DNA of 64,000 bases from Octopus vulgaris (lineage: Eukaryota), in the NCBI GenBank assembly GCA_951406725.2, contig OX597827.1:33418001-33482000 (forward strand). The letters run 5' to 3'. The notes below the pieces were generated by a model. That model was given only the letters and a program-made list of their open reading frames with translations, was not told where the DNA came from and did not search any database. A program made the position numbers and the translations under genes. Positions 1 to 61,853 of the stretch are shown here, in pieces. Every line of letters starts with the position of its first letter. Positions within the stretch are counted from its first letter, which is position 1.

Positions 1-81
1 TGTCGAAGTAATCGTGTACAAGAAAGAAGACGAAGACACGACGAACCCTATAGCCCTAACACTAAACCTCACGCTAAGACA

Positions 82-198
82 CATACATGCATGCATGCAT
101 GCATACATACATACATACATACATACATACATACATACAAACATACATACATACATACATACATACATACATACATACATACATACATACACACATAC
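82..198. repeat. (CATA)n microsatellite
   Basis: Direct tandem ACAT/CATA run; explains the HTYI/MYVC ORFs. Confidence 0.95.
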
Positions 199-1145
199 AT
201 ATAGATACACACGCAATACACACGTGCGCACACGTACAAACGCCCAACACAAACACGTACACGCACACATACACCTTATCGAAAACAATACACTACACAC
301 ACACATGCAGATATATAGATATATCCACAAACACGTGTGCGTGTATTAAAGAAAAATACATGAGATAATTTTATATTTTGTCAGACTTTATGTTCCGAGT
401 TCTAATACCGTCTGATTCGGCTTCACCCCCAAACCCTTGGGTCCATACATTATTCCAGCCACATTTCAGATATTTCAAGGCAAAAATATCACTTAAAAAT
501 TCAAAAATATAAATTCCTTTGTAAGGGAAGTAACATCTAAGATTTGTGAAAATACCAAGACTTCTTTTCAAGTTACCTCCCTTGCAATCAAGAAAAACAA
601 CTCTTGCCATGACACGTGTGTAAATATAATCCCCCTTTGAAAACGATGGTCATAATTATAAACATCTTTATACCCAATTAAATGGGTTAAGAACTTGCCC
701 GTCTCTCATGGATACATTGAATCGTTTCCTTTCTAGACAACACAACGTAATAGTTTTCCCTTTTTCCAATCGATGTCAATATGAAGCAGATAACATCGCT
801 TCGATATGTTTCCGTCGTGATGCCTACATTTCCACACTTTTCTCCAATTCTGAATAATTGCGGATGAATAACATGAGGGTGGTACACACTTGTTTGGAGT
901 AAAAAATGTTTGTCAGTTGAAGGAGTGATGTACACAAATTAGCGACTCGTGAACTTCGCACATGACGGAACAGTCCCAGATATTCGTAGGATCAGGGCAC
1001 CGATGATATTAATGGAGCTGCTCTGAGCGGCACTCATTGTTATGTTGACCACTATGGCCATAAACTTAAACCTCACCCTAACACACATAAATACATACAC
1101 ACATGTACACGCGCGCAATATACATACGCACAAACATACCTGCGT

Positions 1146-2670
1146 GGGGTTGGGGTTGGGGTTGGGGTTGGAGTTGGGGTTAAGGTTAGGGTCATGGTCA
1201 GGGTCAGGGTTTGGGTAGAGTTAGGGTTAGGGTTAGGATTAGGGTTATGGTTAGGGTTTGGGGTTAGGGGTTGGGGTTGGGGTTGGGGTCAGGGATAGGG
1301 TTAGGGTTAGTGTTAGGGTTAAGGTTAGGGTTAGGGTTAGGGTTAGCGTTAGGGTTAGGTTTAGCGTCCGGGTTAGGGTTAGAGTTAGGGTTAGAGTTAG
1401 GCCTAGGGTTAGGGCTAGGGTTAGTGTTAGGGTAAGGCTTAGGGCTACGTTTAGGGCAAGGGAGTAGGGTTAGGGTTAGGGTTTAGGTTTAGGGTTACGG
1501 TTTGTGTTAGGGTCAGGGTTAGGGTTAGGGGTTAGGGTTTGGCTTAGGTTTAGGGTTCGGGTTAGGGGTTAGGGTTAGGTTTAGTGATAGGGTTTGGGTT
1601 AGGGCTAGGGGTTAGGGTAAGGGTTAGGGCTACGTTTAGGGTAAGGGAGTAGGGTTAGGGTTAGGGTATAGGTTTAGGGTTATGGTTGGTGCTAGGGTTA
1701 GGGTTAGGAGTTAGGCTTAGGCTTAGGCTTAGGTTTAGGGTTCGGGTTAGGGGTTAGGCTTAGGCTTAGTGATAGGGTTTGGGTTAGGGCTAGGGGTTAA
1801 GGTTAGGGTTAGAGGGTTAGGGTTAAGGTAAGGGTTAGAGTTAGGGTTAGGGGTTAGGGTTAGAAGTTTTGGTTAGTGTAAGGGTTAGGGTGAGGGTTAG
1901 GATTAGGGTTAAGGTTAGGGTTAGGATCAGCGTTAGGGTTAGGGGTTAGGTTTAGTGATAGGGTTTGGGTTAGTGCTAGGGGTTAGGGTTAGAGGTTTAG
2001 GGTTTGGATCTGGGTTAGGGTTAGGGTTAGGGGTTAGGGTTCGGGTTAGGGGTAGGGTTGGGGTTCGGCTTAGAGTTGGGGTTAGGGTGAGCATTAGAGT
2101 TTAGGGTTAGGGTTAGGGGTAGGGTTAGGGTTTTGGGATAGGGTTGGGGTTAGGGTTAGGGGTTGGGGTTAGGTTTATGGTTAGGGTTAGTGTTAGCTTT
2201 AGGGTTTGGGTTAGGGTTAGGGTTAGGGATAGGGTTAGGGTCAGGGTTATGGCTAGTGTTAGGGTTAGGGTTAGGGTTAGGTTTAGTTTTAGGGTTAGGA
2301 TTAGGGTTAGAGTTACGGTTAGGGTTAAAGATTAGCATTAGGGGTTAGGGTTAGCATTACGTTTACTTTTAGGATTAGGGTTACGGCTACGGTTAAGGTT
2401 AGGGTTAGGGTTAGTGTTAAGGGTAAGGGTTAGGGTTAATGTTAGGTTTAAAGTTAGGGTTAAAGGTTAGGATTAGTATTTAGGGTTAGGATTTGCGCTA
2501 GAGTTAGGGTTAAGGATTAGGGTTGGAGTTGGGTTTAGGGTTAGGGGTAGGTTTAGGGTTAGGATTAGGGTTAGGGTTAGGGTTAGATTTTTGGTTAGGG
2601 TGAGGGTTAGCGTTACGGTAAGGTTTAGGGTTAGGTTTAGTGTTAGGGTTTGGGTTAGGGTTAGGGTTAG
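1146..2670 (+). repeat. Degenerate interstitial telomeric repeat array (TTAGGG)n
   Basis: About 1.5 kb of TTAGGG with variants (TTTAGG, TTAGTG, TTGGGG). A higher-order unit of about 185 bp is visible: agggctacgtttaggg(c/t)aagggagtaggg at 1441 and 1626. Confidence 0.95.
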
Positions 2671-2739
2671 TGTATATATATAAATATATATAAATACATA
2701 TATATATAAATATATATAAAAACATATATATATAAATAC

Positions 2740-2771
<32 letters not shown>

Positions 2772-2772
2772 G

Positions 2773-2824
<52 letters not shown>

Positions 2825-2842
2825 TTTATATATATATGTATT

Positions 2843-2873
<31 letters not shown>

Positions 2874-2882
2874 GTATCTATA

Positions 2883-2933
<51 letters not shown>

Positions 2934-2957
2934 TGTATCTATATACATTTATATATA
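2671..2957. repeat. (TA)n-rich spacer at the telomere-repeat polarity switch
   Basis: Near-pure TA repeat lying between the G-strand and C-strand arrays. Confidence 0.95.
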
Positions 2958-5900
2958 AACCCTGATCCTAACCCCTAACCCTAGCCCTACCCCTAACTCT
3001 AACCCTACTCCTAACACTTACCCTAACCCTAACCATAAACCTAACCCTAAATCTAACACAAAACATAAACCTTAAGACTTAAGACATAACACTAACCCTA
3101 ACCCTAAACCTAACCCCAACCCTAACCCTAACCCAAACGCTAAACCTAACCCTAACACTAAACCTTACCCTAGCCCTAACCATAACCCTAATCCTAACAC
3201 TAATCCTACACTAAACCTAACACTAACCCTAACCCTTACTCAAACCTAGCCCTAAACCTAACCCTAACTCTAAACGCAAACGCTAAGCCTAACACTAAAC
3301 CTAACCTTAACCCTAACCCTAACCCAACACTAACCCTTACCCTAACCGCAATCCTAACACTTACCTTTACACAAATCCTAACACTAATCCTAACCCTAAC
3401 CCTAAACTTACCCTACACTAACCTAACCCTAACCCTAACCCTAACACCAAACCTAACCCTAACTCTAACACTAAACCTAATCCTAAACCTAACCGTAACA
3501 TTAACCCTAACTCTAACCCTAATTCAAACACTAGCCCTATCTGTAAACCTAACTCTAACCCTAACTCTAACCATAACCCTAACCTGAACCTTAACACTGA
3601 CACTCCCCTAACACTAACCCTAACCTTAACCCGAACCCTAACCCAAACCCTAACCCCTAACCCTAACCATAACCCTAACCCAAACCAAAACCCTAACACT
3701 AACACTACCCTAACCCTACCCTAAACTTAACACGAATACTAACCCTAAACATAGATCCTAAACCTAACCCTAAACCTAACCCTAAACCTAACCCTAACCC
3801 TAACCCTAAACCTAGCCCTAACCCTAACCTAAACCGAACCCCTAACGCTAACACTAACCCTAACCCTTACCCTAACCAAAACCCAAACCCTAACCCTAAC
3901 CCTAACCCTAATGCTAACCCAAACCCAAACCCTAAACCTAAACCTAACCCTAACACTAAACCTAACTCTAGCCCTAACCCGAACCCTAACCGTAACACTG
4001 GGCCTGGTCCTGGCCCTGGCCCTGGCCCTGGGCCTGGCCCAGGCCTTGTCCTGGGCCTGGTACTGGCCCTGGCCCTGGCCCCAAGGCCTGGCATTCACCC
4101 TGGCCTGGACCTGCGCCTGGCTGTGATCCTGGCTGGGGACCTGGCCTGGCACTGGCCGGACCCTGGCCCTGGGTCTGGCCCTGGGCCTGGTCCTGGCCCT
4201 GGCCATATCCGTGGCCCTGGCAGCTGGCCCTGGCCTCGGTGGACCGGGGCCCGGACCCGCCCTGGTTCGAGGGCCTGGCCCTGGCCTAACACTAAATCAA
4301 ACGCTAAACATGACACTAAGCCTAACACTAAACCAAGCCCTAACCGAAACCCTAACCCAACCCTAACCCTAACCCCAAACCCTAACACTAACCCTAACCC
4401 TAACCCTAACCCTAAACTTCAACCTAACCATAACCCTAACACTAAACCTAACCCTAACCCTAACCCAAACCATAAACCAAACCCTAATCCTAACCCTAAC
4501 CCTATCCGTAACCCTAACGCTAACCCTAACCCTTGCCCTAAACCTAACCCTAATCCTCACCCTAACACTAACCAAAACCCTAACCCTTACACAAACACTA
4601 ACACTAAACGTAACCCTAACCTTAACCCTAATTCAAAGCCTAACCCTAACCCTGGCCCTAACCCTAACATTAACCCTAACCCTAACACAAATACTGATGC
4701 TAACCATGACCCTAACCCTAACCCTAAACCTAACCCTAAACCTAACCCAAACCCTAACCCTAAACCTAAACCTAACCCTAACTCGGACCATAACCCTAAC
4801 CCTAAACCTAAACCTTGGCCTAAACCTAACCCTAATCGTAACCCTAACCCTAAACCTAACCTCAACCCAAACCCTAACCCGAACCCTCACCCTAACCCTA
4901 ACCCTAAACCTACCCCTAACCCGACAACTAACCCTAACCGTAACACAGAAACTAAACCTAACCCCTAAGGCTAACCCTAGCCCTACCACTCACCCTAAAC
5001 CTAACCCTGTCTCTAGACCAAACGCACAAACCTAACCCTAAACCTTACCCTAACCCTAACCCTGACCCTAAACCTAACACAAACCCTAACCCTAAACCTA
5101 ACCCTAAACCTAAACCAAACCCTAACCCTAACACTAACCCTGACCCTAACGCTAACTCTAAACCTAACCCTAACCCTCACCCTAAACCTAACCCTCACCC
5201 TAACACTAACCCAAACCCTAACCCTAAACATAACCCTAACCCTAAACCTAACCTAACCCTATCCATAACCCTAACCCTAACCCTAACCCGATCCCTAGAC
5301 CTAACACTTAAACCAAACCCTATCACTTACCCTAAACCTAACCCCGACCCTAACCCTAAACCTAAACTTAACCCTAACCCTAACCCTAACCCTAACCCTA
5401 ACCCTAACCCTAACTCTAACCCTAATCCTAACCCTTACCCTAAACCTAACCTTCACTCTAACCCTAACCCTAACGCTAGCCCTAACGCAAACCCTAAACC
5501 TAACCCTACCCCTAACATTAACACTAACCCTAACACTAACAGTACCCAAACCCTCACCCTTAACCCTTACCTACCCTATCCCTTGCCCTATCATTTACCC
5601 TAACACTTACCCTTGCCCAAAACCCTAAACCTAACCCTAACCCCAACCCTAACCGCTAACCCTAACCCTAGCGCTAAACTTAACGCTAGCCCTAACATAA
5701 ACCTGACACTAACCCTAACCTAACCCTTAATCCTAACCCTAACCCTAACACTAAACCTAACCTTAAAGCTAACCCTAAACCTAACCCTAACCCTAACCCT
5801 AAAGCTAACCCTAACCCTTACCCTAAACCTAACCGTAAACCTAATACTAACCCTAACCCTAACCCTAAACGTAACCTTAACCTTAACCCTAACCAGACTC

Positions 5901-7473
5901 CTAACCCTAACTCTAACATTAGCCCTAACCCAAACCCTAACCTTAACCCTATGCCTAACCCTAAACTTAAAACTAACCCTAAACCTACACCAAAACCTAA
6001 CCCTAGACATAACCTTAACCTAACGCTAACCCTAACCCTAACCATAAACCAAACCCTAGCCCTAACCCTAAACCTAACACTAATCCTAAACTTTAACATA
6101 ACCCTAACCCTAACTCTAACACTAACCTAACCCTAACCCTAACCCTTACCCGTACCCTAACCCTAAACCTAACCCAAACCCTAACTCTAACCCTAACCAT
6201 AACCCTAACCCTGAACATAACCCTAACCCTAACCCTTAACCTAACCCTAACCCTAACCCTAACGCTAACACTAAATCTAAACCCTAACCTTAGCCCTAAA
6301 CCTAACCTTAACCCTAACCCTAACCCTATCCGAAACCCTAACCCTACCCTAACCCTATAACTAACCCCAACCCTAAAACTAACCCTACCGTAACCCTAAC
6401 CCTAATCTAACCCTAACCCTAACACAAACCCTAACACTACCCTAACCCTAATCCTAACGCTAACCCTAACGTTAACGCTAGCCCTAACCCTAACCCTAAC
6501 CCTAACCCTAATCCAAACCCTAATCCTGACCCTAGCCCTTCACCCTAAACCTAGCCCTAAACCTAAACCTAACCCCTAACGCTAACCCTAACTCTAACCC
6601 TAACCCTAACCCTAGCCCTAACGCCAAACGCTTTCCCTAATCCTAACCCTTATAGCTAACGCTAACCCTAACCCTAACACTAATCCTAACCATAAACCTA
6701 ATCCTAACCTTATCTCCAACCCTAATCCTATCCCTAATCCTGACCCTAACACTAAACCCTATCCGTAGCCGAATCCTTACGCTAACCCTAACCCTAACCT
6801 TAAACCTAACCCTACCCTTTACCCTAAACCTAACCCTCGCCCTAACCCATACCCTAAACATAATCATAACTCTAACCCTTAACCTTAACCCTAACCCTAA
6901 CACTAACCCTAACCCTAAGCCTAACCAAAACCCTAACCCTAATGTAAACACCTTACCCTAACCCTAACCCTAACCGAAACCCTAACCCGAATTCTAACAC
7001 CTTACCCTAACCCTAACTCTAAATCTGAACCTAACCCTTCCATTAACCCTAACACTAACCCTAACTGTATACCTAATCCTAACCTTAACCCTAAACCTAA
7101 CCCTAACCCTAACTCCTAACCCTAACCCTAATCCTTAAACCTAACCGTAATGCTGACCCTAACCCTAACCCTAGCCCTAACCCTAACCCTAACACAAACC
7201 GTAACCCTAAACCTAAACCCAAACCCTAACCCTAACCCCACTCCCTTACCCTAAACGTAGCCCTAACCCTTACCCTAACACTAACCCTAACCCTAGACCT
7301 AACCCTAGTCCTAACACTAAGCCTAACCCTAACTCTAACCCTAACCCTAACCCTTACCCTAACCCTAACCCTAACCTTATCCATAACCCTAACCCTAACC
7401 CTACCCTAGACCCTAACCCTACCCTAGACCCTAACGCTAAGCCTAACCCTAACACTAACCCTTGCCCTAACCC
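2958..7473 (-). repeat. Degenerate telomeric array in opposite orientation, (CCCTAA)n on + strand
   Basis: About 4.5 kb of CCCTAA with variants CCTAAA, CACTAA and TCCTAA. Confidence 0.95.
3998..4286. repeat. (CCCTGG)n island inside the CCCTAA array
   Basis: Same 6-nt register as the flanks with AA replaced by GG. Confidence 0.9.
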
Positions 7474-10400
7474 TTGCTATTTCCTTCAATTTCCGGCAGT
7501 CTCCGTCAATCTCCGGCAAACTCCGGCAATTTCGCCAATCTCCGGTTAACTCCACCAATCTCCACAAATCTCCGGCAAACTCCGGCAAAGTACGCAAATC
7601 TCACTCTAGCGCCGCCTATCTCCGCCAATCTAACTCGAGCTCCGCCTATCTCACTATATCTCCGCCTATATCACTCTATCTCCGCCTATCTCACACTATC
7701 TCCGCCTATCTCCACCAATCTCACTCTATCTACGCCTATCTCACTTTATCTCACTCCCAGGTGTTTTAACACCCAGCACTTTTGGGAAATCTCCCAAAAT
7801 GCTATTCCGCCTATCTCCACCAATCTCTGAAAATCTCCGACAATAACCGCCTATCTCACTCTGTCTCCCCCTATCTCACTCTATCTACCGCCTATCTCAC
7901 TCTATCTCCATTAATCGCCGCCAATCTCACTCTATCTCCGCCTATCTCACTCTCTCTAAATATCTTAACACCCAGCATTATTGTCATATCTCCCAAAATG
8001 CTATTCCGCCTATCTCCGCCTATCTCCGCATATCTCCGCGCATCTCCGCGTTTCTCCGCCAATCTCCGCCAATCTCACTCTTTCCCTCTCTCCCAGGTGT
8101 TTTAACACCCAGCATTATTGGGAATTCAACCCCAAATGTGATTCCGCAAATCTCCGCAATCTCCAGCAATCTCCGGTAATCTCAGTTAATTTCCAGTTAT
8201 CTCCAGCAATCTCCAGCAATTTCCGGCAAACTCCGGCAATCTCCGACAAACTCCGCCCATCTCACTCTATTTCCGCCTATCTCTGCCAATCTCACTCTAT
8301 CTCCACCTATCTCACTCTATCTCACACTCTGCCTGGTGTTTTAACGCCCAGCATTATTGGGAAATCTCCCAAAATGCTATTCCTACAATCTTCGGCTATC
8401 TCTGGCTATCTCCGGCTATCTCTGGCTATCACCGGCAATCTCCCGTAAACTCTGGCAATCTCCGGCAATCTCTGGCTATCTCCGGCAATCTCCGGCAATC
8501 TCCGGCAATCTCCAGCAATCTCCAGCAATCTCCGGTAATCTCAGTTGATCTCCAGTTATCTCTGGCAATCTCTGGTAATCTCCGGCTATCTCTGGCAATC
8601 TCCCGTAAACTCCGGCAATCTCCCGTAAACTCTGGCAATCTTCAGCAATCTCCGGCAAAATACGGCAATCTCCGGCAAACTCCGCCTATCTCCACTAAAT
8701 CTCCAGCAAACTCCACCAATCTCCGGCAAACTCCGCCACACTACACCAATCTCATTCTAGCTCCGCCTATCTCCGCCAATCTAACTCCGTCTTTGCGACT
8801 ATCTCATTCTATCTCCGCCAGTCTCACTATATCTCCGCCTATCTCACACTATCTCCGCCTATCTCACTCTCTCTCCACCTATCTACGCCTATCTCACTCT
8901 ATCTCCGCCTATCTCACTCTATCTCCGCCTATCTCCGCCTATCTCACCAATCTATCTCCGCCTATCTCACCAATCTATCTCCGCCTATCTCACTCTATCT
9001 CCGACTATCTCCAACAATCTCCGCAATCTCCAGCAATCTCTGGTAATCTCAGTTAATCTCTGGTTATCTCCGGCAATCTCCAGCAATCTCCGGCAAACTC
9101 CTGCAATCTCCAACAAACTCCGCCCATCTCACTCTATCTCCACCTATCCCAGGTGTTTGAACACCCAGCATTATTGGAAAATCTCCCAAAATGCTATTCC
9201 ACCAATCTCTGCCAATCTCAATCTATCTCCACCTATCTCCGGCTATCTCAGCCTATCTCACTATCTCTCTCACTCTCTCTTTCTCTCTCTCTCTCTTCCA
9301 GGTGTTTTAACACCCAGCATTGGGAAATCTCCCAAAATGCTATTCCGCCTATCTCACTCTCTCCCAGGTGTTTTTTGACACACAGCATTATTGGGTAATC
9401 TCCCAAAATGCTATTCCGCCTATTTCTGGCAGTCTCTGGCTATCTGCGGCAATCTCCGGCTATCTCCGGCTATCTCTGGCTATCTCCATCAATCTCTGGC
9501 CATTTCTGTCAATCTTGCCAATCTCACTATTTCACTCTCTCACAGATGTTTTAACACCCAGCATTATTGGGAAATAACCCAAAATGCTATTCCGCCAATC
9601 TCACTCTATCTCACTCTCTCCCAGGTGTTTTAACATGCAGCATTATTGGGAAACCGCCCAAAATGCTATTCCACTAATCTTCGCCTATCCCACTATCTCC
9701 CTCTCTCCCAGGTGTTTTAAAGCCCAGCATTACTGGGAAATCTCCCAAAATGCTATTCCGCCAATCTCTGCCTATCTCCGCCAATCTCCACCAATCTCCG
9801 CCTATCTCCCTCTATCTCTCTCTCTCCCAGGTGTTTTAATATCCAGCATTATTGGGAAATCTCCAAAAATGCTATTCCGCCTATCTCTGCCTATCTCACT
9901 CTCTCCCTCTCTCCCAGGTGTTTTCACACCCAGCATTATTGAGAAATCTTCCATAATACTATCTCGCTTATCCCCGATAATCTCCAGCAATCTCCGGCTA
10001 TCTCTGGCCATCTCCGGCAATCTCTTGCATTCGACGGTAATCTCTGGCAATCCCTGCCAATCTCACTCTATCTTACTCTCTACCAGGTGTATTAACACCC
10101 AGCATTATTGGGAAATCTCCCAAAATGCTATTAAGCCAATCTCCGCCAATCTCACTCTATCTCCGCCTATCTCACTCTCTCCCAGGTGTTTTAACACCCA
10201 GCATTATTGGGAAATATCCCCAAATTCTATTCCACCCATCTCCGCCTATCTCACTCTCTCCAAGGTGTTTTAATACCCAGCATTATTGGGAAATCACCCA
10301 AAATGCTATTCCGCCAATCTCACTCTATCTCTACCTATTGCACTCTATCTCACTCTCTCCCAGGTGTTTTAACACACAGCATTTTTGGGAAATCTCCCAA

Positions 10401-12301
10401 AATGCTATTCCGCCAATCTCCACCTATCTCTGTCAATCTCCGCCATTCTCCGCCTATCTCACTATCTCCCTCTCTCCCAGATGTTTTAAAACCCAGCTTT
10501 ATTGGAAAATCTCCCAAAATTCTTTTCCGCCTATCTCCGGCAATCTCTGCCTATCTCACTCTATCTCCGTCTATCTCCGCGTAGCTCCATCTTTCTCACT
10601 CTCTCCCAGGTGCTTTAATACCCAGCATTATTAGGAAATCTCCCAAAATGCTATTCCACCTATCTCTGCCTATCTCACTCTCTCCCTCTCTCCCAGCTGT
10701 TTTAACACCCAGCAATATTGGGAAATCTCCCAAAATGCTGTCCGTCTATCTCCCAGGTGTTTTAACACCTAGCATTATTGGGAAATCTCCCAAAATGCTA
10801 TTTCGCCTTTCTCCGCCTATCTCCCAGGTGTTTTCACACGCAGCATTATTGGGAAATCTCCCAAAATGCTATTCCACTTATCTCTGGCAATCTCTGGCTA
10901 TCTCCGTCTATCTGCAGCAATCTCTGGTCATCTCCCGCTATCTCCAGCAGTCTCCAGCAATCTACGGTAATCTCCGGCAATCTCTGGCAATCTCCAGCTA
11001 TCTCCGGCAATCTCTGCCAATCTCACTGTCTCCCAGGTGTTTTAACACCCAGCATTATCGGGAAATCTCCCAAAATGATATTACGCCAATCTCACTCTAT
11101 CTCCGCCTGTCTCACTCTATCTCACTCTCTCCCAGGTGTTTTAACACCAAGCATTATTGGGAAATCTCCCCAAATTCTATTCTGCCCATCTCCTCCTATC
11201 TCTACCTATCTCTACCTATCTCCGGCTATCTCTGCCTATCTCACTCTCTCTCTCTCTCTCCCAGGTGTTTTTATACCCAGCATTATTGGGAAATCTCCCA
11301 AAATGCTATTCCACCTATCTCACTCTCTCCCTCTCTCCCAGGTGTTTTGACACCCAGCATTATTGGGAAATCTCCCAAAATCTATTCCACCTATCTCCGC
11401 GCATCTCCCAGGTGTTTTAACACCCAGCAATTTTGGGAAATCTCACAAAATGATATTCCGCCTATCTCCGGCAATCGCCAGCTATCTCCAGCAATCTCCG
11501 GCAATCTCCGGCTATCTCAGGCTATCTCCGCCTATCTCCAACTATCTCCGGCAATCTCACTCTATCTCACTCTCTCCCAGGTGTTTTAACACCCAGCCTT
11601 ATTGGGAAATCTCCCAAAATGCTATTCCGCCTATCTCCCAGGTGTTTTAATACCCAGCAGTATTGGGAAATCTCCCAAAATGCTATTCTGCCAATCTCTG
11701 CCTATCACCACCTATCTTCGACAATCTCTGCCTTTCTCACTCTCTCCCTCTCTTCCAGGTGTTTTAACACCCAGCATTATTGGTAAATCTCCCAAAATGC
11801 TATTCCGCCTATCTCCGCCAATCTCCACCTATCTCCGCCAATCTCTACCTATCTTACTCCATCTCACTCTCTCCCTCTCTCCCAGCATTTTTGGGAAATC
11901 TCCCAAAATGCTATTCCGCCTATCTCATCCAATCTCTGCCAAATTCTCGCCAATCTCCGCCTATCTCACTCTATGTCCGCCTATCTGCATCTATCTCACC
12001 CTCTCCCAGGTGTTTTAATATCCAGCATTATTGGGAAATCACCTAAAATGCTATTCCTCCTATCTCCGCCTATCTCACTCTCTCCCAGGTGTTTTAACAT
12101 CCAGCATTATTGGGAAATCTCCTAAAGTGCTATTCCTCCTATCTCTGCCTGTCTCATCCAATCTCTGCCAATCTCCGCTAATCTCCACCTATCGCTGCCT
12201 ATCTCACTCTCTCTCCGCCTATCTCCACCTATCTCTGCCTATCTCCATCTATCCTACTCTCTCCCAGGTGTTTTAATACCCAGCATTATTGGGAAATCTC
12301 C
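7474..12301. repeat. Subtelomere-like satellite: 10-mers (ATCTCCGGCA / ATCTCCGCCT / ATCTCACTCT) with about 30 copies of a ~57-bp module
   Basis: Module CTCCCAGGTGTTTTAACACCCAGCATTATTGGGAAATCTCCCAAAATGCTATTCCGCC recurs from ~7755 to ~12300. Confidence 0.92.
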
Positions 12302-12363
12302 TGTCATCGTTGTCGTCGGAAAAATATATTAGGAATAAGAACCCAGGTTCGAAATTTCCCCAA

Positions 12364-12409
12364 GACACCTGATGAAGTCTGCAGGGTATGTCAACTGAAA
12401 CGTTGTGTT
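12364..12409 (+). ncRNA. Minimal type I hammerhead ribozyme motif (Penelope-like)
   Basis: GACAC-CTGATGA-stem II (agtctg..caact)-GAAA-C-GTT-GTGTT. Stem I is GACAC/GTGTT and stem III is the palindrome ACGT. Confidence 0.75.
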
Positions 12410-13295
12410 AACAACAAACAAGATGAGAACAAATATCCGTCAAATGTAAATGATGTAAATAATGTACATAATTCTTCATCTTTTAGATACAAGTTCTTTT
12501 TTTTTTTGAAAGTTACAGAAAATTTATTTGTTCATTTTGCCCAAAACTTTGTAGCTCTGGGTTTATTTGGTTATTTTTAAAAACTGTTCCCACAGAAGTT
12601 ATACTGAATAATCTAGCTCTAGTTTCTTTGTTTAATATTTTAAATTAATATATTTCAGTTTTAAATGAGGATCATTATATTAATTTCTTATGCTATTTCA
12701 AATACTTAGGGCAATCTTGTCTCTTTGATTGCCAAACTAAGATAACAAGTGACTTTGATAACTGACTGAAAATGGAAGTTAGTCTACATTAAATCTGTTG
12801 GCATATTATGGTGGTCGATTTTTTTTTTTTTTTTTTAGTAAGCTCATCCTGCTGGTTAATGGCATTACAATTTCGAATGCTATAAACTTTTATGTAACTC
12901 TTTGAAAAGTTATGTCTGAAATTCCATAACTTCAAATCTTGCAGTGACAGTGCTTCCTGCTGTAGTCAAAATATCCAGTCATTGTTCCAGCTAGTTAAGG
13001 TCCTCAAAGCATCCTGGCTAGCACTATACCTCACCAGTGGTACTAATGTTCCTTGTCAGTTATTAACTGTGTACATCTCACACAAAGAATATATCCTTTA
13101 GATTTCCATTTAGAAGTCAAATCCAGTATTTCATGCTGCCTCCACAAATCACCTCACTAGATGAGTTGTTATATATCCATGTAAATATGAATACTAAATG
13201 ATATAGCACTTTCTATTTTGTAACCTACTATATACATTTATTAAAAAAGTTATAGCCAAAATAACATTTAAATGAAAAAGTAGATGCCTCTTATA

Positions 13296-13495
13296 TCCTT
13301 TCTACTATAGGCACAAAGCCTGAAATTTTGTGGGAGGGCATAAATTGATTACATCAACCCTAGTACTCAACTGGTACTTATTTTATCAACCCTGAAAGGA
13401 TGATAGGCAAAGTTGGCCCAAGCAGCATTCGAACTCAGAATGTGAAGACATGAAATGCATTTCACCCAACGTGCTAATGATTCTGCCAACTCAAC
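13296..13495 (-). mobile_element. tRNA-derived SINE (same family as 57922-58139)
   Basis: Reverse-complement similarity to the 57922 copy (ctgagttcgaat box, ctttcagggttgataaa core, ttgtgcctatagtagaaag tail). Confidence 0.7.
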
Positions 13496-13862
13496 TAATA
13501 ATAGAAGCAGAATTATTAAAAATTAGAAATTAAATATCCCGAAGTTTTTATATTCACAAATTACTGTAATTGAGAAAGGGTGAATAAATTAATGTTATGT
13601 GCACAACATTATTTTAGGAAAGTGGTGTATCATTACAATAGCTACATACATACCTGTAGACTTTTACTTTGCTTTCTCCTTTGTTATGCTTTTGTTTTCC
13701 TCACATTAAACATCAATTAGGTGTCTAGTGTCTTAGGAAATCTGAAGAATATTTAGTCATCCATCATAGAACAGAATGAGGGACGGAATTATTTCCCTTC
13801 CTTAATTCTAACTATACCTGTTCTATGCTTCTACTGTCGAGAGATTAGAATAGACTCTATTC

Positions 13863-14645
13863 CAGTGTTTCCCAAAAATGGGACTGTGGCAAAATGCTGT
13901 GGGACCAGAGGGAAATTTTGGAATAGAGTGAAAATTACATCAATTTCTTCCTAAAATTTTCTATTACTGCCTGCAACTCTTTAAAATTTACACACCCTGC
14001 ATATTACATATCTTAATTTGCCATATCAATCATTTGATTGTTCAATAATAATTCATTAATGATTTATAAAGGATTGAGTTGGCAGTGGTAAGTCTGGTAT
14101 GACAGTCTTATCGCTCATGTCACTTCATTGAACTTTTGAAGTGTTGTAATGTTTCTGAGAAGTAAGTAGCTTTGAAAGCAATCCTAGCTATTGAATGTGA
14201 CAATCTGCCTTTCAGGTATATTTGAGATTTGCTGAACTAACAGCTTCAAGGTAAAAATGCAGATATTTTAAACTGTAAAGCGGCTACTAGTGCTTTCCTT
14301 GAAAAACATAATCTATTTAGGATGAATATTAGGTGTAAGGAGTCTACTTGTTTTCAATCTTGCCACTACCGAGGGGAGGCTGCAAGATGATATTTTAGTA
14401 TACATTGAACACTTAAAGAAATTACACAACGATATGGAAATTAGGCTTAAAGATTTCCTGGAAAGGAACATTCCAAGTTGATTGATGTTGATATTACATT
14501 GCAGTGTAATCAAAGTGTTCAACCTGAACTTAATTATCATAGGCAATTAGTGAAATTGCTATGAAATTCCCATTACTTTAGCAGGAAGTAAAATTATATT
14601 CCATTGCTTTTCCGACATCATACCTAGTTGAGTCAGAACTTTCCC
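13863..14645 (+). mobile_element. Decayed hAT (Buster/Charlie-like) transposon fragment
   Basis: CAGTGTTTCCCAA terminus at 13863; peptide relics LQDDILVYIEHLKKLHNDMEIRLKDFL and AFPTSYLVE (hAT C-terminal motif). Confidence 0.6.
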
Positions 14646-14960
14646 AAATCAGCCAGGCTGCCAAAGGGCTTAATCCGATTTTTTATGCAATTTTAAAAAA
14701 AAAATTTTTGTAATCTTTATTATTATAAATATAAAAATATTCGATGTAAATTAGATTAATAAATACATTTATTATTTACTTCCCTCAAAAATTTACAATC
14801 ACTTAGGTGTAAAATTATATTCCAGGTGATCCTCATTTTGTCCAATATTGAAAAATGTGCAAAACTGCAAATACAAAGGATTTTATATTCAACAAGTAAT
14901 TATATTTTTTACTCACTTAAGCCCTTCATTCCTGTGGAGTATGGGCCATAACATATAGAA

Positions 14961-15082
14961 TTTTCTCAATAAAACCAAGAGAAAATGATGTTTTATAAAC
15001 ACATTCTACCAGTATACGAAGTTTAAAACTTTTCAGTTACCTAGAAATTATGTTACAAAGTGCCGTTCAAAAGGAAAATCCC
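14961..15082. mobile_element. Solo right TIR of the GGATCTTTTCC family
   Basis: cacattctaccagtatacgaagttt...gccgttcaaaaggaaaatcc matches the right TIRs ending at 17017 and 25088. Confidence 0.7.
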
Positions 15083-15270
15083 TAACACAACCACCAGCTA
15101 AACACTATTAATTTAATAACTCTGCTACTATGATTAATATAATACTATATTATACCAATACCCGATCTAATGCAACTACCATTAAAAACTACCTCCTCCC
15201 ATCACTACTAGCAAGTTATACTTCGCTCGCTTTACCTCTGGCTTCATCTGCTAGAAATAGTAGCTAAATA

Positions 15271-16656
15271 GGATCTTTTCCTTTTGATGGACGGAATTTT
15301 CTAGTTAACTAAACAATTTGAAACTTCGTATACTCAAATCATTTGCTGCGTCTAAAAACGTAAACAGCACACACACACGTGTTATTCATCCTTCTCTCTT
15401 CTGTCTGTCTTCTGTCTTCTGCATGTGCTAGAAATAACAGCTATATCTCTTAAATCGATGAATTTCGTCGCCCAACAAAAATATTAACGATATTTTTTGA
15501 ATATTTTCTTTCTTTTTTTTTACCGAAAAGGCTTCTCCCATGGTTTTGAAGGGCCAGAAACAACAAAAACAAAACAATAATATGCCTAAATCGGTCTAGA
15601 GGGTGCGCGTGGAGTATGGGTCGTATTGTAAAAAATTGCGAAATATTTTTTCATAAAAGGATGCCCCAGCTTGTCGGAGGCTGTGATATAAATTGGGGAA
15701 AAAATCCTCGACACCAGTGTGTAATTGGTACTTAATTTATCGACCCTGAAACGATGAAACATTGCCACGCTTATATATTAATTACTATGTGCTTGTGCAA
15801 ATGTATATGCATGTGTTTGAGAGAGAGAGAGAGAGTGTGTGTGCAAGTGTACGTGTGTATGTATCTGAATATATGTGTGTGTGTGTGCGACGTGCGTCTG
15901 CTATGTTTCTTTATCAATATCGATATCGATAACGCAGCAAATGATTTGAGCTGAAATGCTGGCATTTCATTGGTTAAAATTCGAAGAATTAAACTACGTT
16001 AAACTTACAAAGTACAATTTTGTTTTCAATTTTGTTTACAATAATGGGCGAAGTTTCGCATGTCGTAGCGCAGATTTCCGTCGATTTCCGTAAAAAACTT
16101 TTATTTTTTTACATAAGTAATGAGAGCGAAAGAGACTAAGAGGAAGCGATTTTACGACGAGAAGGTTTCACTTTGAAGTCGGCCTGTGTGTGTTTGATGG
16201 GGTGTGGGAGACAGACAGTATGTTGTGTAAGTGAAGTGCTTCTGTTAGTGTGTGCGAAGAGACAGAGAGAGTAATGAGTGAAAGAGAGAGATAACTGATT
16301 TTTTACTCGGTGTATGTGTATATGTATGTATGCATGTATGTGTATATGTATGTATGCATGTATCTATGTATGTGTGTGTGTGTAAGTATGTGTGTGTGTA
16401 TGTATGTATGTATGGCCGATTCATCGTAATTTTTTACTCGGTGTATGTGTATATGTATGTCTGCATGTATGTGTGTGTGTGTATGTATCTATGTATGTGT
16501 GTATGTATGTATGTATGTGTGTGTGTGTATGTATCTATGTATGTGTGTGTGTGTATGTATGTATGTGTGTATGTATGTATGTATGGTCGATTCAGTGTAA
16601 TTTTTTACTCGGTGTATGTGTATATGTATGTCTGCATGTATGTGTGTGTGTGTATG

Positions 16657-16717
<61 letters not shown>

Positions 16718-17017
16718 ATCTGAATATATGTGTGTGTGTGTGCGACGTGCGTCTGCTATGTTTCTTTATCAATATCGATATCGATAACGCAGCAAATGAT
16801 TTGAGCTGAAATGCTGGCATTTCATTGGTTAAAATTCGAAGAATTAAACTACGTTAAACTTACAAATAAAAGTTTTTTACGGAAATCGACGGAAATCTGT
16901 GCTACTACAACCGAAACTATGCCCAATAATGTTTTCTTTTGACACATTCTACCAGTATACGAAGTTTCAAATTGTTTAGTTAACTAGAAAATTCCGTCCA
17001 TCAAAAGGAAAAGATCC
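15271..17017. mobile_element. Non-autonomous TIR element with GG..CC ends and 8-bp TSD (Merlin-like)
   Basis: About 60-bp near-perfect TIR GGATCTTTTCCTTTTGATGGACGGAATTTTCTAGTTAACTAAAC; exact TSD GCTAAATA at 15263-15270 and 17018-17025. Confidence 0.85.
16047..16923. mobile_element. Second GG..CC element nested in the right-TIR region of the first
   Basis: About 60-bp imperfect TIRs (ggcgaagtttcg..gatttccgtcgatttccgtaaaaaactttta); exact TSD CAATAATG at 16039-16046 and 16924-16931. Confidence 0.8.
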
Positions 17018-24285: not shown

Positions 24286-25088
24286 GGATCTTTTCCTTTT
24301 GAACGGCAGTTTTCAACACAATTTCTAGTTAACTAAACACTTTAAAACTTCGTATACTGGTAGAACGTGTCAAAATAAAACATTTTTTCTCTTGGCTTTC
24401 TTGAGAAAATTGTAATTTGTAAGTTTAACGTAGTTTAATTTTTCGAATTTTAACCAATCAATCGCCTCTATTCAGCTAAAATCATTTGCTGCGTCTAAAA
24501 CTGAGACAACATCCTGTCACTGTTATGTTTACGTTCGGAAAGCGTGTGTATAAAATTATAGAATTATTTTGTTTGTTAATTGTTTAAATTATTTTCCATT
24601 GCTTTCATTTTAGCCTTTCGGTTTTTTTTTTCTTATGCAAAGGAAAATAGTTTAAACAATACACGTGTATCTCAAAACAAAAACTCAAAACAAAAACAAA
24701 ACGAATAATTTTAGACACACGCGTAACAATTAAATTAATTTAACAATTAAGAAAAAAAAAAACGAAAGGCTAAAATTTAGGGTTAGGGTTGGGGTTAGGA
24801 TTAGTGTAGGGTTAGGGTTAGGGTTAGTGTAGGGTTAGAGCTAGGGTTAGGGTTAGTGTCAGAATGTTGTCTCAGTTTTAGACGCAGCAAATGATTTTAG
24901 CTCAGTAGAGGCCATCGATTGGTTAAAATTCGAAAAATTAAACTACGTTAAACTTACAAATTACAATTTTCTCAAGAAAGCCAAGAGAAAAAAATGTTTT
25001 ATTTTGACACATTCTTTGATACGAAGTCTAAAAGTGTTTAGTTAACTAGAAAATGTGTTGAAAACTGCCGTTCAAAAGGAAAAGATTT
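24286..25088. mobile_element. Long-TIR (~235 bp) element of the GGATCTTTTCC family carrying internal TTAGGG repeats
   Basis: 24286-24520 is inverted to ~24856-25088; flanks CCTTCAAG/CCTCCAAG (8 bp, 1 mismatch); TTAGGG-like tract at 24777-24856. Confidence 0.85.
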
Positions 25089-26440: not shown

Positions 26441-26731
26441 GTGATGTTTGTGGTGGAAGTTATAAGTTCAGCAAAAATTTAGATTCAGATGAATATGGTA
26501 CTTAAGTTGAGGCACCAGAATTTAGTATAGTATTATCCATACAATTTCAAAATAAGATGATTAGAATCTAAATAAGCAACAAGGATATCCACAGGTAATG
26601 CAGTATGATTGTTTCTAAGTGGAAGGAAGGACAACAATGTTATTTGTCTATCTCCTTAACTTCTTGGAGATTTTAGGCAAAATTATACTAATGTGTCCAT
26701 CTGTTTTAATTTAATTAAATTATATGTCTTT

Positions 26732-26819
26732 GTGCAGCTGAGGATTGGTCTGCATTTAAATTGATGTAATGGTTGCATTGTTCAATTAAATGGAGTTGTG
26801 TGAAACGATCGTACTGTAT
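26732..26819 (+). ncRNA. Type I hammerhead motif with long stem II
   Basis: GTGCAG-CTGAGGA-..-GAAA-CGATCG-TA-CTGTAT. Stem I is GTGCAG/CTGTAT, stem III is the palindrome ACGATCGT, cleavage site GUA. Confidence 0.65.
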
Positions 26820-26934
26820 TACCTCTGGATATCCTTGTTGCTTATTTTGATTATATATATATATAATGTGCTACAAATTAAACTCATAAATTTTATCCAA
26901 CACTGCTTGTGTAAATTAAATTTAATTAAATACA

Positions 26935-27101: not shown

Positions 27102-27156
<55 letters not shown>

Positions 27157-27162
<6 letters not shown>

Positions 27163-27813
27163 GAAACATAAGACCAGGTAATTTAATCTGCAAACATGAC
27201 TCCAATTTCAGATGAATTTAAAGAACAATTATATACATGATACATTAAAAGTATGTAAATACATATACATTTTTTAAAAATCTATAAATATATTAAAAAT
27301 ATATATGTAAGATAATAGATTTTTTAAAAAATCTTTAGATGTAGACATAAGTATATTAAAATGTACATGTATACGTAAATATTTTGAAGAAGGTCTGAAG
27401 TAGTGATGAAAGTGAAATTAAAGATACAAGGAGGAAAGAAATTAAAGGTCAGGATAGTTAAAAATAGGGTACTGACAGCTGTTTCTAGAAATTAATTGCA
27501 AGTAAAAATAAGGGGATATAGTACTCATTATTTAGCAATTCCTCCATCTTCAGGGTAGGAGGTTTTACATTTGCAAATTAACAAGTTATGTATACATGTA
27601 TGTTTTAATATACCTATGTCTACATCTAAAGATTTTTAAAAAATCTATTATCTTACAAATATATTTTTAATATATCTATTTATTTATAGATTTTTAAAAA
27701 ATGTCTATGCATTTATATATTATTAATGTATTATATATATAATTGTTCTTTAAATTCATCTGAAATCGGAGTCATGTTCATGGATTAAATTACCTGGTCT
27801 TACGTTTCTTCAT
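27157..27813. repeat. ~215-bp inverted repeat pair (27157-27373 / 27590-27813) enclosing a hammerhead
   Basis: gaagaaacataagaccaggtaatttaat.. is the reverse complement of ..attaaattacctggtcttacgtttcttc. Confidence 0.85.
27471..27556 (-). ncRNA. Type I hammerhead motif
   Basis: Minus strand: TACC-CTGAAGA-TGGAGGAATTGC..GCAATTAATTTCTA-GAAA-CAGCTG-TC-AGTA. Stem III is the palindrome ACAGCTGT, cleavage site GUC. Confidence 0.65.
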
Positions 27814-27817
27814 ATTA

Positions 27818-29095
27818 TTGAGTTGACAACTAAGTTCCTGCCGTTTTTTTAAATTTTGGAATCTATTTTTTTCAAGAATTCTATTTTTGAATCATTTTGG
27901 AATCTATTTTATTTATTTATTTTTTTTCTAGTTAATTTTAGTTAATTTTTGTTTATTTTCAGATCATTAAAATGGAATGTCAAGTTAAGAAAAATGAGCA
28001 TTTTCAACACCTCCTTCTTTTTGCTTTTAATCAAGGTTCTAAGGCCACAAAAGCTGCTCGCAACATTTGTGCTGTGTATGGAGAGGGTGCAATAGCTGAA
28101 AGAACCACTCATGATTGGTATGCCAAGTTCAAAAATGGAAATTTTGACCTCAAAAACACACCTCATTCTGGCCGTCCAGTTGAGTTCGATGAAGAACAAT
28201 TAAACTAACTTTTGCACGAAAATTCTCATCAAACAACGAGGGAACTGGCAGAGAAAATGGAATGCTCCCACACTGCTATGGAAAAGCATCTTCACTCGAT
28301 GGGAAAGGTTCAAAAGTATGGAGCATGGGTTCTGCATTATTTAAGTGACAACAACAAAAATCAATGAGCCACAATCTCTGCTGGTTTGCTTGCTTGTCAC
28401 CGCTCAACACATGGGCACAAACAACGATTTCTTTACCGAATAATTACTGGTGACAAAAAATAGTGCCTGTACATCAATATGAAGCAGTGTGCTGAATGGC
28501 TTAGCCCCAGTAAACAAGTGACACCATGCGTGAAACAAGATCTTCATCCGCGTAAAACAATGTTGTGCATATGGTGGGAATGGGAAGGGATTATCCATTA
28601 CGAATTACTTGAATGGAACCAAATGGTCAATGCAAAACTCTATGTTCCACGGATGGAATGACTCAACATGGCTGTTCAAGAGAAAAGACCTAATCAGCAT
28701 CATGGAGTTCTTCTGCTGTACGACAACACCCGCCCTCATATCGCCAATATGACCAAGGAAGCCATTCAAATGCATGGTTGGGAAGTGCTGTCACACCCGC
28801 TATACTCTCCTTATTTGGCACCAAAGGATTTCCACCTCTTTTGATCTCTTTCAAATGCTATGCGCAGAGTTTTGTTCGATACTGATACAGAATTGAGAAC
28901 TTGGTTGGATCAATTTTTCGAGTCGAAATCGGGTGATTTCTATAAATGAGGTATTGAAAATCTTGTTGAACATTGGGTAGAAGTTGTAAACAACAAGGGT
29001 GAATACATTATTGATTAATTAGATGTTACTTTTTTAATAAAACTTTTAAAAAAGTAAAATTTTAAAAAAAACCAGGAACTTAGTTGCCAACCCAA
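27818..29095 (+). mobile_element. Full-length mariner transposon (mellifera/capitata-like), inactive
   Basis: TIR TTG(A/G)GTTG(A/G)CAACTAAGTTCCTG at both ends, TA on both flanks, about 1.28 kb. Confidence 0.93.
27972..29018 (+). pseudogene. Mariner DD34D transposase with premature stops
   Basis: MECQVKKNEHF.., WVLHYL, IITGDKK, YDNTRPH, HPLYSPYLAPKDFHLF; several in-frame stops. Confidence 0.92.
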
Positions 29096-35887: not shown

Positions 35888-36135
35888 GGCATTCTTTCGA
35901 TATAACTCGACAAAATCAAAACATTTCATTTCGGGTATTTCCGTGGAAGCAAATGATAGTTCGATTCTGTTTTCTGCTTGGAAATTTGCGGTTTTTACAT
36001 ACACACATGAAACAGGTAAGAACAAATATGCAAGGCTTTTTTTCTTCAAGTTTAAAATGAGACATTGCTGGCATAATTTCGTTATTACCTGAAGTGAAAT
36101 GTTTTGATTTTGTCGAGTTATATCGAAGGAATGCC
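35888..36135. mobile_element. 248-bp MITE with GG..CC ends and 8-bp TSD (Merlin-like)
   Basis: About 50-bp TIR GGCATTC(T/C)TTCGATATAACTCGACAAAATCAAAACATTTCA; exact TSD AAAAAATG at 35880-35887 and 36136-36143. Confidence 0.85.
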
Positions 36136-41449: not shown

Positions 41450-44400
41450 TGTATAAACTTAGATATGTTTCGACCAAAGATTGGTCCAAGCCATGTCTAA
41501 CTTAATAGCACCACCTGATAGGATTATTTGAATCCTGTTTAAGTCAAGTTTTGTTTATGGTCCATTCAAGTAGTGAGTTTTTGTTGGGTGAGTTGTATCC
41601 AATTATGGGTGGCTTATCTGGTATTCCTTGAAGGAATCTATCCAGACTCCGTTTAAAGTTGATGGGATCCTTTTCCTCTTTGATCCCTTTCGGGACAATG
41701 TTAAATAGGGCAGGGCCTGTTGAGGAAAATAAATTATGATGCAGTGTACATGTATGCTGTGATCTGGAATTGGGCAGGGGACGTATGGCCCGTGGTCCCA
41801 GTCTTGGATGAACCTTGAAGCTAATGGGCAAAGTTGGCGGTATATTCTCCACATCGTACAAATGATGTACCGCTCACAGCGACGCTGGAGAGTGTAGAGT
41901 TTCAAGGCTTTAAGGCGATCCCAATAATCGAGAGCAGCCATGCCTTCAATTCGTTTAGTGAGTGCCCTCTGGGGCGATTCAATCCTCGAGATGTTTTGTC
42001 TTGTATGGAGAGACCACAGTGGGCAGCAGTATTCGAGTTGTGGCCGTACAAAGGAGGAGAAAAGTGGTATGATGACACATTGTTCTCTGGACCGGAAAGT
42101 TCTTAAGATCCAGGAACTCATCCTACGAGCTATATCGACCTTCTTGTTGATGTGTGCACTCCAACTGAGATCGTCATCAACAATTACACCCAGGTCTCGG
42201 ATATTGTTAGAGGCTGTGAGCGGATCCCCTGAAGGAAGAGAGTATGGCTGTTTTAGTGAGGAATTTCTTCCAAAATGCATCAGCTCAAATTTTCCCTCGT
42301 TCAGTTGCATTTTGTTTCTGTCTGCCCATTGACTCACAGCATATAGATCAGACTGGAGTTGAGTTCGGTCTGCTTCTTCATTCACAATTTGCTGGAGCTT
42401 AGTGTCATCAGCAAATATTTTTACTTTGCAGTAATGTACGACACTGGAAAGGTCGTTTATGTAAATTATGAAGAGTAGCGGACCCAAGACAGTCCCCTGG
42501 GGGACACCGCTGGTGACTTTTGCTGGGCTTGAGTGGACTCTGTCAACTACAACATGTTGTGTTCTATTCGCCAGGAAATACTTGATCCAGTGTAGAATTT
42601 TTCCACGGATTCCAACATTTGCCAGTTTTGAGAGTAGGATATTATTGGTCTACCGTCTACCCTGTCGAACGCTTTACTGAAGTCAAGATATATGACATCA
42701 GAGTTCAAACCTGTTCCCAAGGCTTTGAGTACATCTTCAATATGGTGCAAGAGCTGTGTTAGACAGTCCCTGCCACAGCAAAAGCCATGCTGATTTGCAT
42801 TTAGGAGTTTGTGGGTCTCCAGGAAGTCAGCTATCCTTGATCTTAACACTCTTTCAAACACTTTAATGATGTGGGAGGTGAGTGAGATTGGGCGATAGTT
42901 GAGTGCGAGGGATCTGTTTCCCTGTTTGAAAACCGGGATGACTGACTGGGATAGAAACTGTTTTGGTATATAACCTGCGTCTAACGAATTTCTCCTGAGG
43001 TTGGTCAGAGGGGCTGTAAGTTGGTGTCTACATTCCTTCAGGAGACTAGCGGGGAATCTATCAGGGCCTACAGCAGAGTAGTATTTGACCTCATTTATTG
43101 CTGCTATGATGTCAGTTGCAGTGAAGGTTATGTCAGAGATTTTATGTTGAGAGTCAACTTCGTTCGCTTCTCTTACGTTAATATCAGTGGGAATACTAAA
43201 GACAGAGCAGTATTATTTCTGCCATTTCTTTAGCATCGTGTTGGGAAATGCCGTTATCATCAATCAATGGCCCAATGGGTGAGACAGTGGTTCTATGCTT
43301 ATTTGCATAAGAATAGAACACTTTTGGGTTCTGTTTGATGTTTTTGATTACCCACTGTTCCTCCACAGCTCTTTGATTTTCAATGGAGGTTTTCATGTCG
43401 GTCTGCAGATGAAGTTTTTCCAGCTCTAGCCTTTTCATTGTTGTTGAATGTGGATGTTGTATGTGGGAATATTTTAATTGGTTGATTTTTTTGTTGAGTC
43501 TTTTGATGCGCCTGATGAGTGTTTTTTTCTTTTAGGGAGCCGGTTTCTGTTTGTGTTAGTAGATTTCGTGGGAGCGTGTTTAGAGCATGTATAGGTGACA
43601 ATGTTGTCAAAGTGCTGCCATGCGGTCTCAATATGGGTGGAATTGAGAGTAAAAGACCAGTCGATGAAAGACAGATCCTTTCTGATTGCTCCTCAGTCCA
43701 CTTTGTGGAAGTTTATGTTGTCAAATGAGTGCCATGGAGTGGGATTGGCTGGTTTGGTTTTTATATGTCGGGAATTAAAATTGCAGAGTACCATGTCGTA
43801 GTCTGAGAGGAGAGTTTTTTCAACTGAAATACTGTGAACGAAGCTAGAGTGATTGGTCAATACCAGATCCAAGATCGTTTTATTCTGTCTCATTGGTTCG
43901 AGCACTAGCTGAGTCAGGAAGTATTCATCCATTAGATTAAAGAGCAGTTCTGCTGCTGCTCTATCTGATGTAGAGCATTTGCCTAACTTCAGAGTATTTG
44001 TGGGCCAGTTCACATGAGAGAGGTTAAAATCACCCATCACTAGTATGTTTCCGGAGTTGTACTTCCGAAGGAAGGACTTGACTTTGCTAAGGCACTCTTC
44101 AAAACACTTTAGAGGTGCTTGGGGAGGCCTGTAAAGACCAACAATGATTATGTCCTTGGCCTTGTTGAATAGTGATACAGATTCACAATAGCCATTGGAA
44201 AATATGTCCTTGGCATCAAGTGAAAAGGAGTCATGGATAAAGATGTCTGTCCCTCCCTCATTTCAGTCTGTGCGATCCACACTTACAATGGTGAAATCTT
44301 TTATTTTCACCTCGGCGTCCATATGGGTGTTGTTCAGGTGAGTCTCGGTAAGGATAAAGAAAGGGAAGCAATGTGCCGTTTCGGCAAGCCAACTCTCTAT

Positions 44401-52800: not shown

Positions 52801-53155
52801 TTGCGGGAACCATAACCATAGCCTCCATGTACACCATGGAAGCCCCCAGCATGTCGTCCAACGTGACCATTGAAGTCACCAGCCACAAAGAGAAGGTCTC
52901 TGTCGTTCGTCAACGAGGTAGTCTGCTGTAGGGTGTCATAGAATCGGTCTCTCTGCCCATCGGGTAGCCCCAGCTGAGGGGCATAGGCCGATATAATGGT
53001 TGCTAATCCATGATGAAGCACTAATCTAATCTTAAATATTCTGTCACTTACTCTATTTACCTCTATTACCTTATCTACCCATTTTTCAGCGAGAAGTATA
53101 CCCATGCCCCCAACACCGTCAGTGTTTCCTGCCCAGAAAATCTTGTACCTGTGTT
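49811..53155 (-). mobile_element. RTE-clade LINE, 5'-truncated (APE, RT, PHD-like Cys motif, 3' UTR)
   Basis: ISAYAPQ, GDFNGHVG, QIDYIL, FVDMEKAFDRV, GVHQGSVLSP, LYADDL, C..C..W.HKRC and RLHWYGHV; (CAT)n tail. Confidence 0.93.
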
Positions 53156-53157
53156 CT

Positions 53158-53344: not shown

Positions 53345-53601
53345 TTATGTATATATATGTATGTATATGTATGTATATATATGTATGTATATGTATGTAT
53401 ATATATGTATGTATATTTATGTATATATATGTATATTTATGTATGTATATATATATATGTATGTATATATATATGTGTATATATATATATATGTATGTAT
53501 ATGTATATATATGTGTATATATATATATATGTATGTATATGTATATATATGTGTATATATATATATATGTGTGTGTATACGTATATATATTTGTATATAT
53601 A
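53158..53601. repeat. (TA/TATG)n microsatellite between two divergent RTEs
   Basis: Direct inspection. Confidence 0.95.
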
Positions 53602-61428: not shown

Positions 61429-61495
61429 GAATTGTTAATCAGGATGTCAAACATCTCAAGTCATATACAATATTATTAAAGGAAGAAATTCAAAA

Positions 61496-61549
61496 TCTTA
61501 CAGCTGTTTCTGTGATATCCCCGAGTATGGGATATTCCGTCATTAGAGA
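61496..61549 (-). ncRNA. Hammerhead motif (core mutated to CTAATGA)
   Basis: Minus strand: TCT-CTAATGA-..ATATCCC..GGGATAT..-GAAA-CAGCTG-TA-AGA. Confidence 0.6.
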
Positions 61550-61853
61550 CAGATTGGGGAAAAAATATGGAAAATGAGAATGGTATATATCAATAAGATG
61601 TTATTTAATGTTGACATGTTTGTGTCTTTTTCGCTGGATATCTACTATACAAGGACTGTAACCCACATGGATATACATAGGATTGCACCTCAGGACTCAT
61701 GCTTTGCTTTCTATAACTTTGGAATGTTGAACTGTCAACTTTTATGCCTCTTCTTTTCTCCCTCTTTCCATCTTATTCTTTTACTCCCTTCGTCTATGTT
61801 ATCATTTTATTGATATATACCATTCTCATTTTCCATATTTTTTCCCCAATTTG

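Follow-up and report, generated by a model that had tools for sequence, protein, structure and literature searches.

A single shared variant patch in two head-to-head degenerate telomere-like arrays of Octopus vulgaris

Organization of the array locus

A 64,000-nucleotide stretch of the Octopus vulgaris genome (assembly GCA_951406725.2, contig OX597827.1, positions 33,418,001 to 33,482,000 of the forward strand), referred to below as the window, contains two degenerate arrays of telomere-like repeats that face each other across a (TA)n tract. A TTAGGG-like array on the plus strand (1146–2672, the left arm) is followed by the (TA)n spacer (2673–2957, 285 nt), by a minus-strand array that reads CCCTAA on the plus strand (2958–7476, the right arm) and by a C-rich satellite (7477–12300). 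The 1145 nt of the window that precede the left arm are non-array DNA. An initial annotation, made from the sequence alone, had described the (TTAGGG)n-(TA)n-(CCCTAA)n polarity, which is confirmed with these boundaries. At this locus the degenerate telomeric units occur alongside further tandem and interspersed repeats.

Segmentation of both arms into hexamers gave 84 canonical units out of 251 in the left arm and 258 out of 753 in the right arm. Among the 6-nt units, 173 of 1320 sites (13.1%) in the left arm and 541 of 3876 sites (14.0%) in the right arm are off canonical, the latter figure excluding a CCCTGG block that is described below. The canonical fraction is level along each arm and the longest pure run consists of seven units, showing that neither inner array end resembles a recently maintained telomere tip; a gradient toward pure repeats was not found at the inner end of either arm. 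The outer left edge of the left array carries runs of TTGGGG and TCAGGG. The variant spectrum of both arrays is skewed G-to-T, and the skew grows from the first G of the unit to the last (19, 45, and 82 of 492 units by G position in the outer right arm). Random sequencing noise was rejected as a source of the degeneracy, since ~90% of the units retain 6 nt and a match of 97% is found on opposite strands.

The interruptions of the TA spacer flip their polarity at ~2756: the ratio of C/AA to G/TT interruptions is 8:0 to the left of this position and 5:13 to the right (permutation p = 0.007). One 12-mer has four occurrences in the window, all within the spacer, two on each strand and facing each other. 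Judged from the sequence, each arm likely represents an array followed by a TA tail, with two such modules joined tail to tail at a junction near 2756. A break or an inversion at the self-complementary TA, or an assembler overlap of two TA tails, would each give this arrangement.

The flanks of the two arms are not inverted duplicates of each other. The inverted comparison of 1–1145 with 7477–12300 gave a score of 20 (null mean 23.4) and BLAST was also without a match between them. The left flank compared with 12301–16000 gave an inverted score of 42 (null maximum 30), and BLAST returned only microsatellite matches for the left flank. No direct repeat of at least 4 nt that might represent a target-site duplication is present at the 1146/7476 edges, and a single 4-mer shared with the 12300 edge is at chance level. 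No subtelomere-like satellite was seen in the 1145 nt to the left of the arrays, and a Pfam search with seven reading frames of this flank gave nothing at curated cut-offs. The flank contains a direct repeat (48–138 and 1052–1139, 74% identity) in which a short CCCTAA-like head is combined with an AC-rich tail. The copy at 1052–1139 adjoins the left array, to which its polarity is opposite.

The shared variant patch

A string of rare variants in the left arm (copy L1, 1416–1512, plus strand) reappears reverse-complemented in the right arm (copy R, 7187–7289, minus strand), identical at 94 of 97 aligned columns with one additional 6-nt gap of one unit. Weaker matches extend outward to 1373 and 7344, respectively. 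A second left copy (L2, 1601–1697, plus strand) lies inside a tandem duplication of ~185 nt (1427–1611 vs. 1612–1795, score 41.9; lag-30 autocorrelation z = 5.2), of which a partial third tail is present near 1943–1976. L2 matches R at 89 and L1 at 88 of 96 columns, such that the three copies differ pairwise at 3, 7, and 8 of ~97 columns (about 3–8%). A diagnostic 24-nt motif of the patch occurs three times in the window (1442 and 1627 on the plus strand, 7240 on the minus strand) and not once in 100 shuffles. From the outer array edge the motif is separated by 296 nt in the left arm and by 213 nt in the right arm, and from the TA spacer by 1207 nt and 4282 nt, respectively.

The match is well above shuffled controls. 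The background complementarity between the arms is 73–83% across the 25 longest pairs in many registers. A variant-weighted local alignment of units (1373–1512 vs. 7344–7187) scored 38.9, whereas none of 150 shuffles exceeded 18.7; the next match was the second left copy (22.7), followed by an independent match of 13.8 that is below the null maximum. At the nucleotide level the patch scored 169; random 16-unit strings (n = 200) reached at most 138, and other real windows of the left arm (n = 102) at most 135. No match to the patch motif was found in metagenome and viral contigs, collections that are not expected to contain the locus. A protein search with a spurious open reading frame (ORF) over the right patch gave seven matches among 4691 candidates, all of which were, by eye, generic PN repeats without the diagnostic peptide.

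The patch of ~100–140 bp represents <10% of the left arm and ~3% of the right arm. After removal of the patch (left 1370–1515 and 1600–1700, right 7185–7350), the variant strings shared between the arms were at chance level in all four settings, with 300 shuffles per setting (7 vs. 6.5, 1 vs. 2.1, 0 vs. 0.1, and 0 vs. 0.1). Variants shared in register numbered three in the innermost 100 units (null mean 4.5) and one in the outermost 36 units (null mean 1.3), the termini thus not being mirrored. Immediately on the inner side of the patch, one rare unit is common to both arms (at 1704 and 7119); it might extend the homology, although it is a single post hoc observation. The initial annotation had reported the mirrored string and its similar distance from the two outer edges, both of which hold, without the second left copy and the CCCTGG block; its description of the arms as mirror copies does not hold. 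The shared ancestry that it assigned to the arms therefore stands for the one patch, and for the remainder of the arms the sharing is what chance would give.

The patch copies differ by about 3–8% whereas the arrays are 13–14% off canonical, which dates the copying after the decay of the arrays, and the patch was likely copied long after that decay. If a clock is assumed, the patch variants would have arisen first and then have been copied three ways at roughly similar times, with the 3/97 differences giving a wide interval. The string had been put forward as an argument against a fusion of two unrelated telomeres, an argument that is lost because the patch is younger than the decay: it dates a later copying event and carries no weight against the joining of two unrelated arrays. 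As a copying event among decayed arrays, it can equally not show that the whole arms descend from one telomere.

The CCCTGG block, the satellite, and other repeats

The right arm contains an in-phase (CCCTGG)n block of 293 bp (3998–4290, plus strand) that holds 14 of the 15 CCCTGG hexamers of the arm and in which G stands in place of A when the preceding base is T or a purine. In this context the A:G ratio is 12:97 within the block (~89% conversion, 97/109) and 1376:77 in the remainder of the arm; after T alone it is 3:40, compared with 149:5 and 456:24. A after C is half spared. The commonest variant is also converted, with a first-position G in 11 of 38 block units versus 10 of 646. The phase is kept, the purine content is 0.42 (0.39–0.41 elsewhere) and the block is slightly noisier than its surroundings (10 of 50 non-hexamer units vs. 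62 of 705, p = 0.02–0.03).

A conversion of this kind has a described technical counterpart: according to PMC9414165, CCCTAA read as CCCTGG is a strand-specific nanopore error that is not seen in HiFi reads. The motif, strand, and phase agree with the block, whereas the error is described there for reads of pure telomeres and the block is part of a degenerate array in an assembly (PMC9414165). Unlike in that description, no CTTCTT tract is present at the locus. The sequence makes a nanopore miscall a possible explanation; a natural CCAGGG sub-array with a boundary-shift mutation bias is another possible one. In practice, the block calls for caution in trusting individual bases in this region.

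The satellite (7477–12300, 4.8 kb, plus strand) is built from 10-mer subrepeats and carries 30 copies of a double-hairpin core on a single strand, co-oriented with the CCCTAA strand, a strand polarity that appears subtelomere-like. The 30 cores (1320 bases) contain 72 substitutions and three gaps, and core copies are absent from the rest of the window. A search of metagenome contigs with the core and an Rfam search of 1–14000 each gave 0 matches. A high-copy repeat (12300–12470) adjoins the satellite, which we take to resemble a Penelope-like pseudo-long terminal repeat with a hammerhead-like core; it has no Rfam match.

Sequencing runs were searched with 76 words sampled from 3798–4490 (51% of them outside the CCCTGG block), and 4 of the 24 listed runs (X1, X4, X9, and X10) were aligned to 12240–16200, a stretch outside the arrays. 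In run X1 the interspersed repeats reach a very high depth and the satellite unit is present in tandem (a joint from 12300 back to 12240), showing that the satellite is real DNA of the lineage. Its cover of unique DNA is patchy (depth 1–3), with nine changes and four gaps in 187 nt in one contig; run X1 appears to be a low-cover relative. Runs X4, X9, and X10 are unrelated, and the word share of 0.33 in X4 marks the word share as generic.

A miniature inverted-repeat transposable element (MITE) at 24288–25086 has terminal inverted repeats of ~235 nt (93% identical), an inner inverted repeat of 29 nt and a degenerate TTAGGG tract (24777–24862), by which degenerate TTAGGG appears to be mobile at a small scale in this genome. 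Related ends are found at 14956–15357 and 15932–17017, and the element lacks the patch motif. Further inverted-repeat pairs with 88–94% identity (27156–27815, 61448–61954, 35888–36135, and 26562–26855) are probably MITE-like. Broken copies resembling long interspersed nuclear elements, two of which are oppositely oriented, and the remains of a mariner-like transposase were recognized by eye, from translations and sequence, at 41600–44260, 50245–53156, 53600–56310, and 27970–29020. Animal DNA rich in microsatellites and transposons makes up the remainder of the window, where the 31 ORFs of at least 150 amino acids resemble, by eye, transposon fragments or repeat translations.

Origin of the arrangement and comparison with known systems

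The reading that we tentatively prefer is that two old interstitial telomere-like arrays were joined at a self-complementary TA tract and that one patch was copied between them later. It is based on the single significant inverted match, the lack of excess sharing elsewhere, the unmirrored flanks and the polarity flip in the TA spacer. The tract inside the MITE also shows that degenerate TTAGGG is found here at places other than chromosome ends. The two arrays would have decayed separately and been joined head to head at (TA)n by a break or an inversion, and much later the patch would have been copied by gene conversion or template switching. Its source may have been the other arm, as the arms pair at 73–83% (about 75% in any register) and arm-to-arm conversion would be easy, or a third array elsewhere. 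The right array and the satellite may together represent an old subtelomere-like unit. Gene conversion and transposition are both listed among the mechanisms for interstitial telomeric sequences (ITSs) in PMC6410037. The preferred reading implies no function beyond that of a recombination-prone repeat.

Several points weigh against this reading. The polarity test was chosen after the spacer had been seen, and among nine control TA tracts there was one with a switch at p < 0.05 (0.016, owing to two events at the tract end). In both arms the patch sits close to the outer edge, a position that a shared family head or a shared proximal telomere pattern would predict better than conversion in a free register. 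The word shares in the 24 listed runs (0.14–0.35, best 0.35, none reaching half) were also counted against it; the best of them is below the 51% of words from outside the CCCTGG block. Because unrelated runs score as high as 0.33 and 35% of the 663 31-mers of 3798–4490 are no more than 4 edits away from the canonical repeat, the shares do not bear in either direction on dispersal or on the CCCTGG block.

An assembly misjoin is considered unlikely; in this case the TA tails of two real loci would have been overlapped in inverted orientation, both loci belonging to a family of degenerate arrays that have the patch as a family feature. The junction does sit in self-complementary TA, the arrays begin 1.1 kb from the window edge, and the CCCTGG block matches the nanopore miscall (PMC9414165) and is slightly noisier, hinting at thin read support. 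Against this, the local sequence is not indel-noisy, as seen in the three gaps among the satellite cores, and the arms do not read back each other. A simple fold-back read chimera, against which the initial annotation had rightly argued, was rejected for the latter reason.

An old end-to-end fusion or an internalized chromosome end, in which two different telomeres carry a patch from an earlier telomere-to-telomere exchange and the TA was expanded or inserted later, is likewise considered unlikely. The polarity is correct, each arm has the patch close to its proximal edge, and the right array adjoins a 4.8-kb satellite with subtelomere-like strand polarity. Furthermore, the outer left edge carries TTGGGG and TCAGGG runs similar to proximal variant repeats that PMC9414165 names, and TTAGGG is given as the only experimentally determined cephalopod telomere motif in PMC13218726. 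However, a 285-nt TA spacer, which could be secondary, takes the place of a direct join, the subtelomere-like satellite is present on the right only, and the inner ends lack a gradient toward pure repeats. Being several times younger than the decay, the patch copies cannot date from before telomerase upkeep ended unless they were converted later.

A sister-chromatid or foldback fusion of a single telomere, one of the origins suggested in the initial annotation, is very unlikely: the short local palindrome at the TA centre and the one mirrored patch would fit, and shared variants would be missing if the foldback was very old and its arrays nearly pure, but the inverted-duplicate flanks that it predicts are absent, as is a colinear variant pattern over the length of the shorter arm on either side of the patch. 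The other suggested origin, a foldback transposon with long terminal inverted repeats made of telomere repeats, is judged highly improbable. Telomere-bearing transposons exist in ciliates, the inverted arms are modular, and one MITE in the window carries a TTAGGG tract. The mirrored termini that such an element predicts are absent (the outermost 36 units do not match), as is a target-site duplication, the arm lengths differ threefold and only one patch is held in common.

It is barely conceivable that the arrays form a real telomere-repeat palindrome with patch exchange between its arms, and that its CCCTGG block is a fixed A-to-G hypermutation, written back by RNA-templated repair from an ADAR hyper-edited fold-back transcript of both arms. 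The sparing of A after C in the block agrees with the preference of ADAR, but the ~89% conversion is above the level known for ADAR, and a published basecalling artefact yields the identical motif.

On the preferred reading, the locus illustrates that head-to-head polarity together with a shared variant string is not proof of a fusion. A true end-to-end fusion scar would allow a karyotype change of the lineage to be dated, and if the patch were shared genome-wide it would show ongoing exchange among dead telomeric arrays. A literature search, whose coverage left out most subscription papers, found no accounts of such arrays in cephalopods.

Among known systems, foldback and ciliate telomere-bearing elements share with the locus the inverted arms of short subrepeats and differ from it in that mirrored termini, a target-site duplication, and a transposase are lacking here. 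At human 2q13 the two arrays are joined directly and subtelomeric duplications lie on both sides, whereas the octopus locus has a TA spacer of 285 nt, 6 kb of array, and a satellite on one side only. Head-to-head polarity is the defining property of fusion ITSs in PMC6410037, PMC2760882, and PMC6800518, and the (TTAGGG)n-(CCCTAA)n orientation with degenerate units is common to 2q13 and this locus (PMC6410037, PMC7215372, PMC2760882). Degenerate or subtelomeric ITSs resemble it in their mixture of degenerate telomeric units with tandem and interspersed repeats (PMC7215372, PMC6410037), the difference being that the second array is inverted against the first here. A horse ITS described in PMC7215372 acquired head-to-head telomeric stretches through a local inversion without chromosome fusion, a likeness to the present arrangement, although that inversion is small (286 bp) with a known empty site and the octopus arrays are kilobases long. 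Finally, telomere-spanning fusions in cancer, as described in PMC11293586, consist of one array followed by subtelomere, an order that is also seen in the right arm and its satellite.

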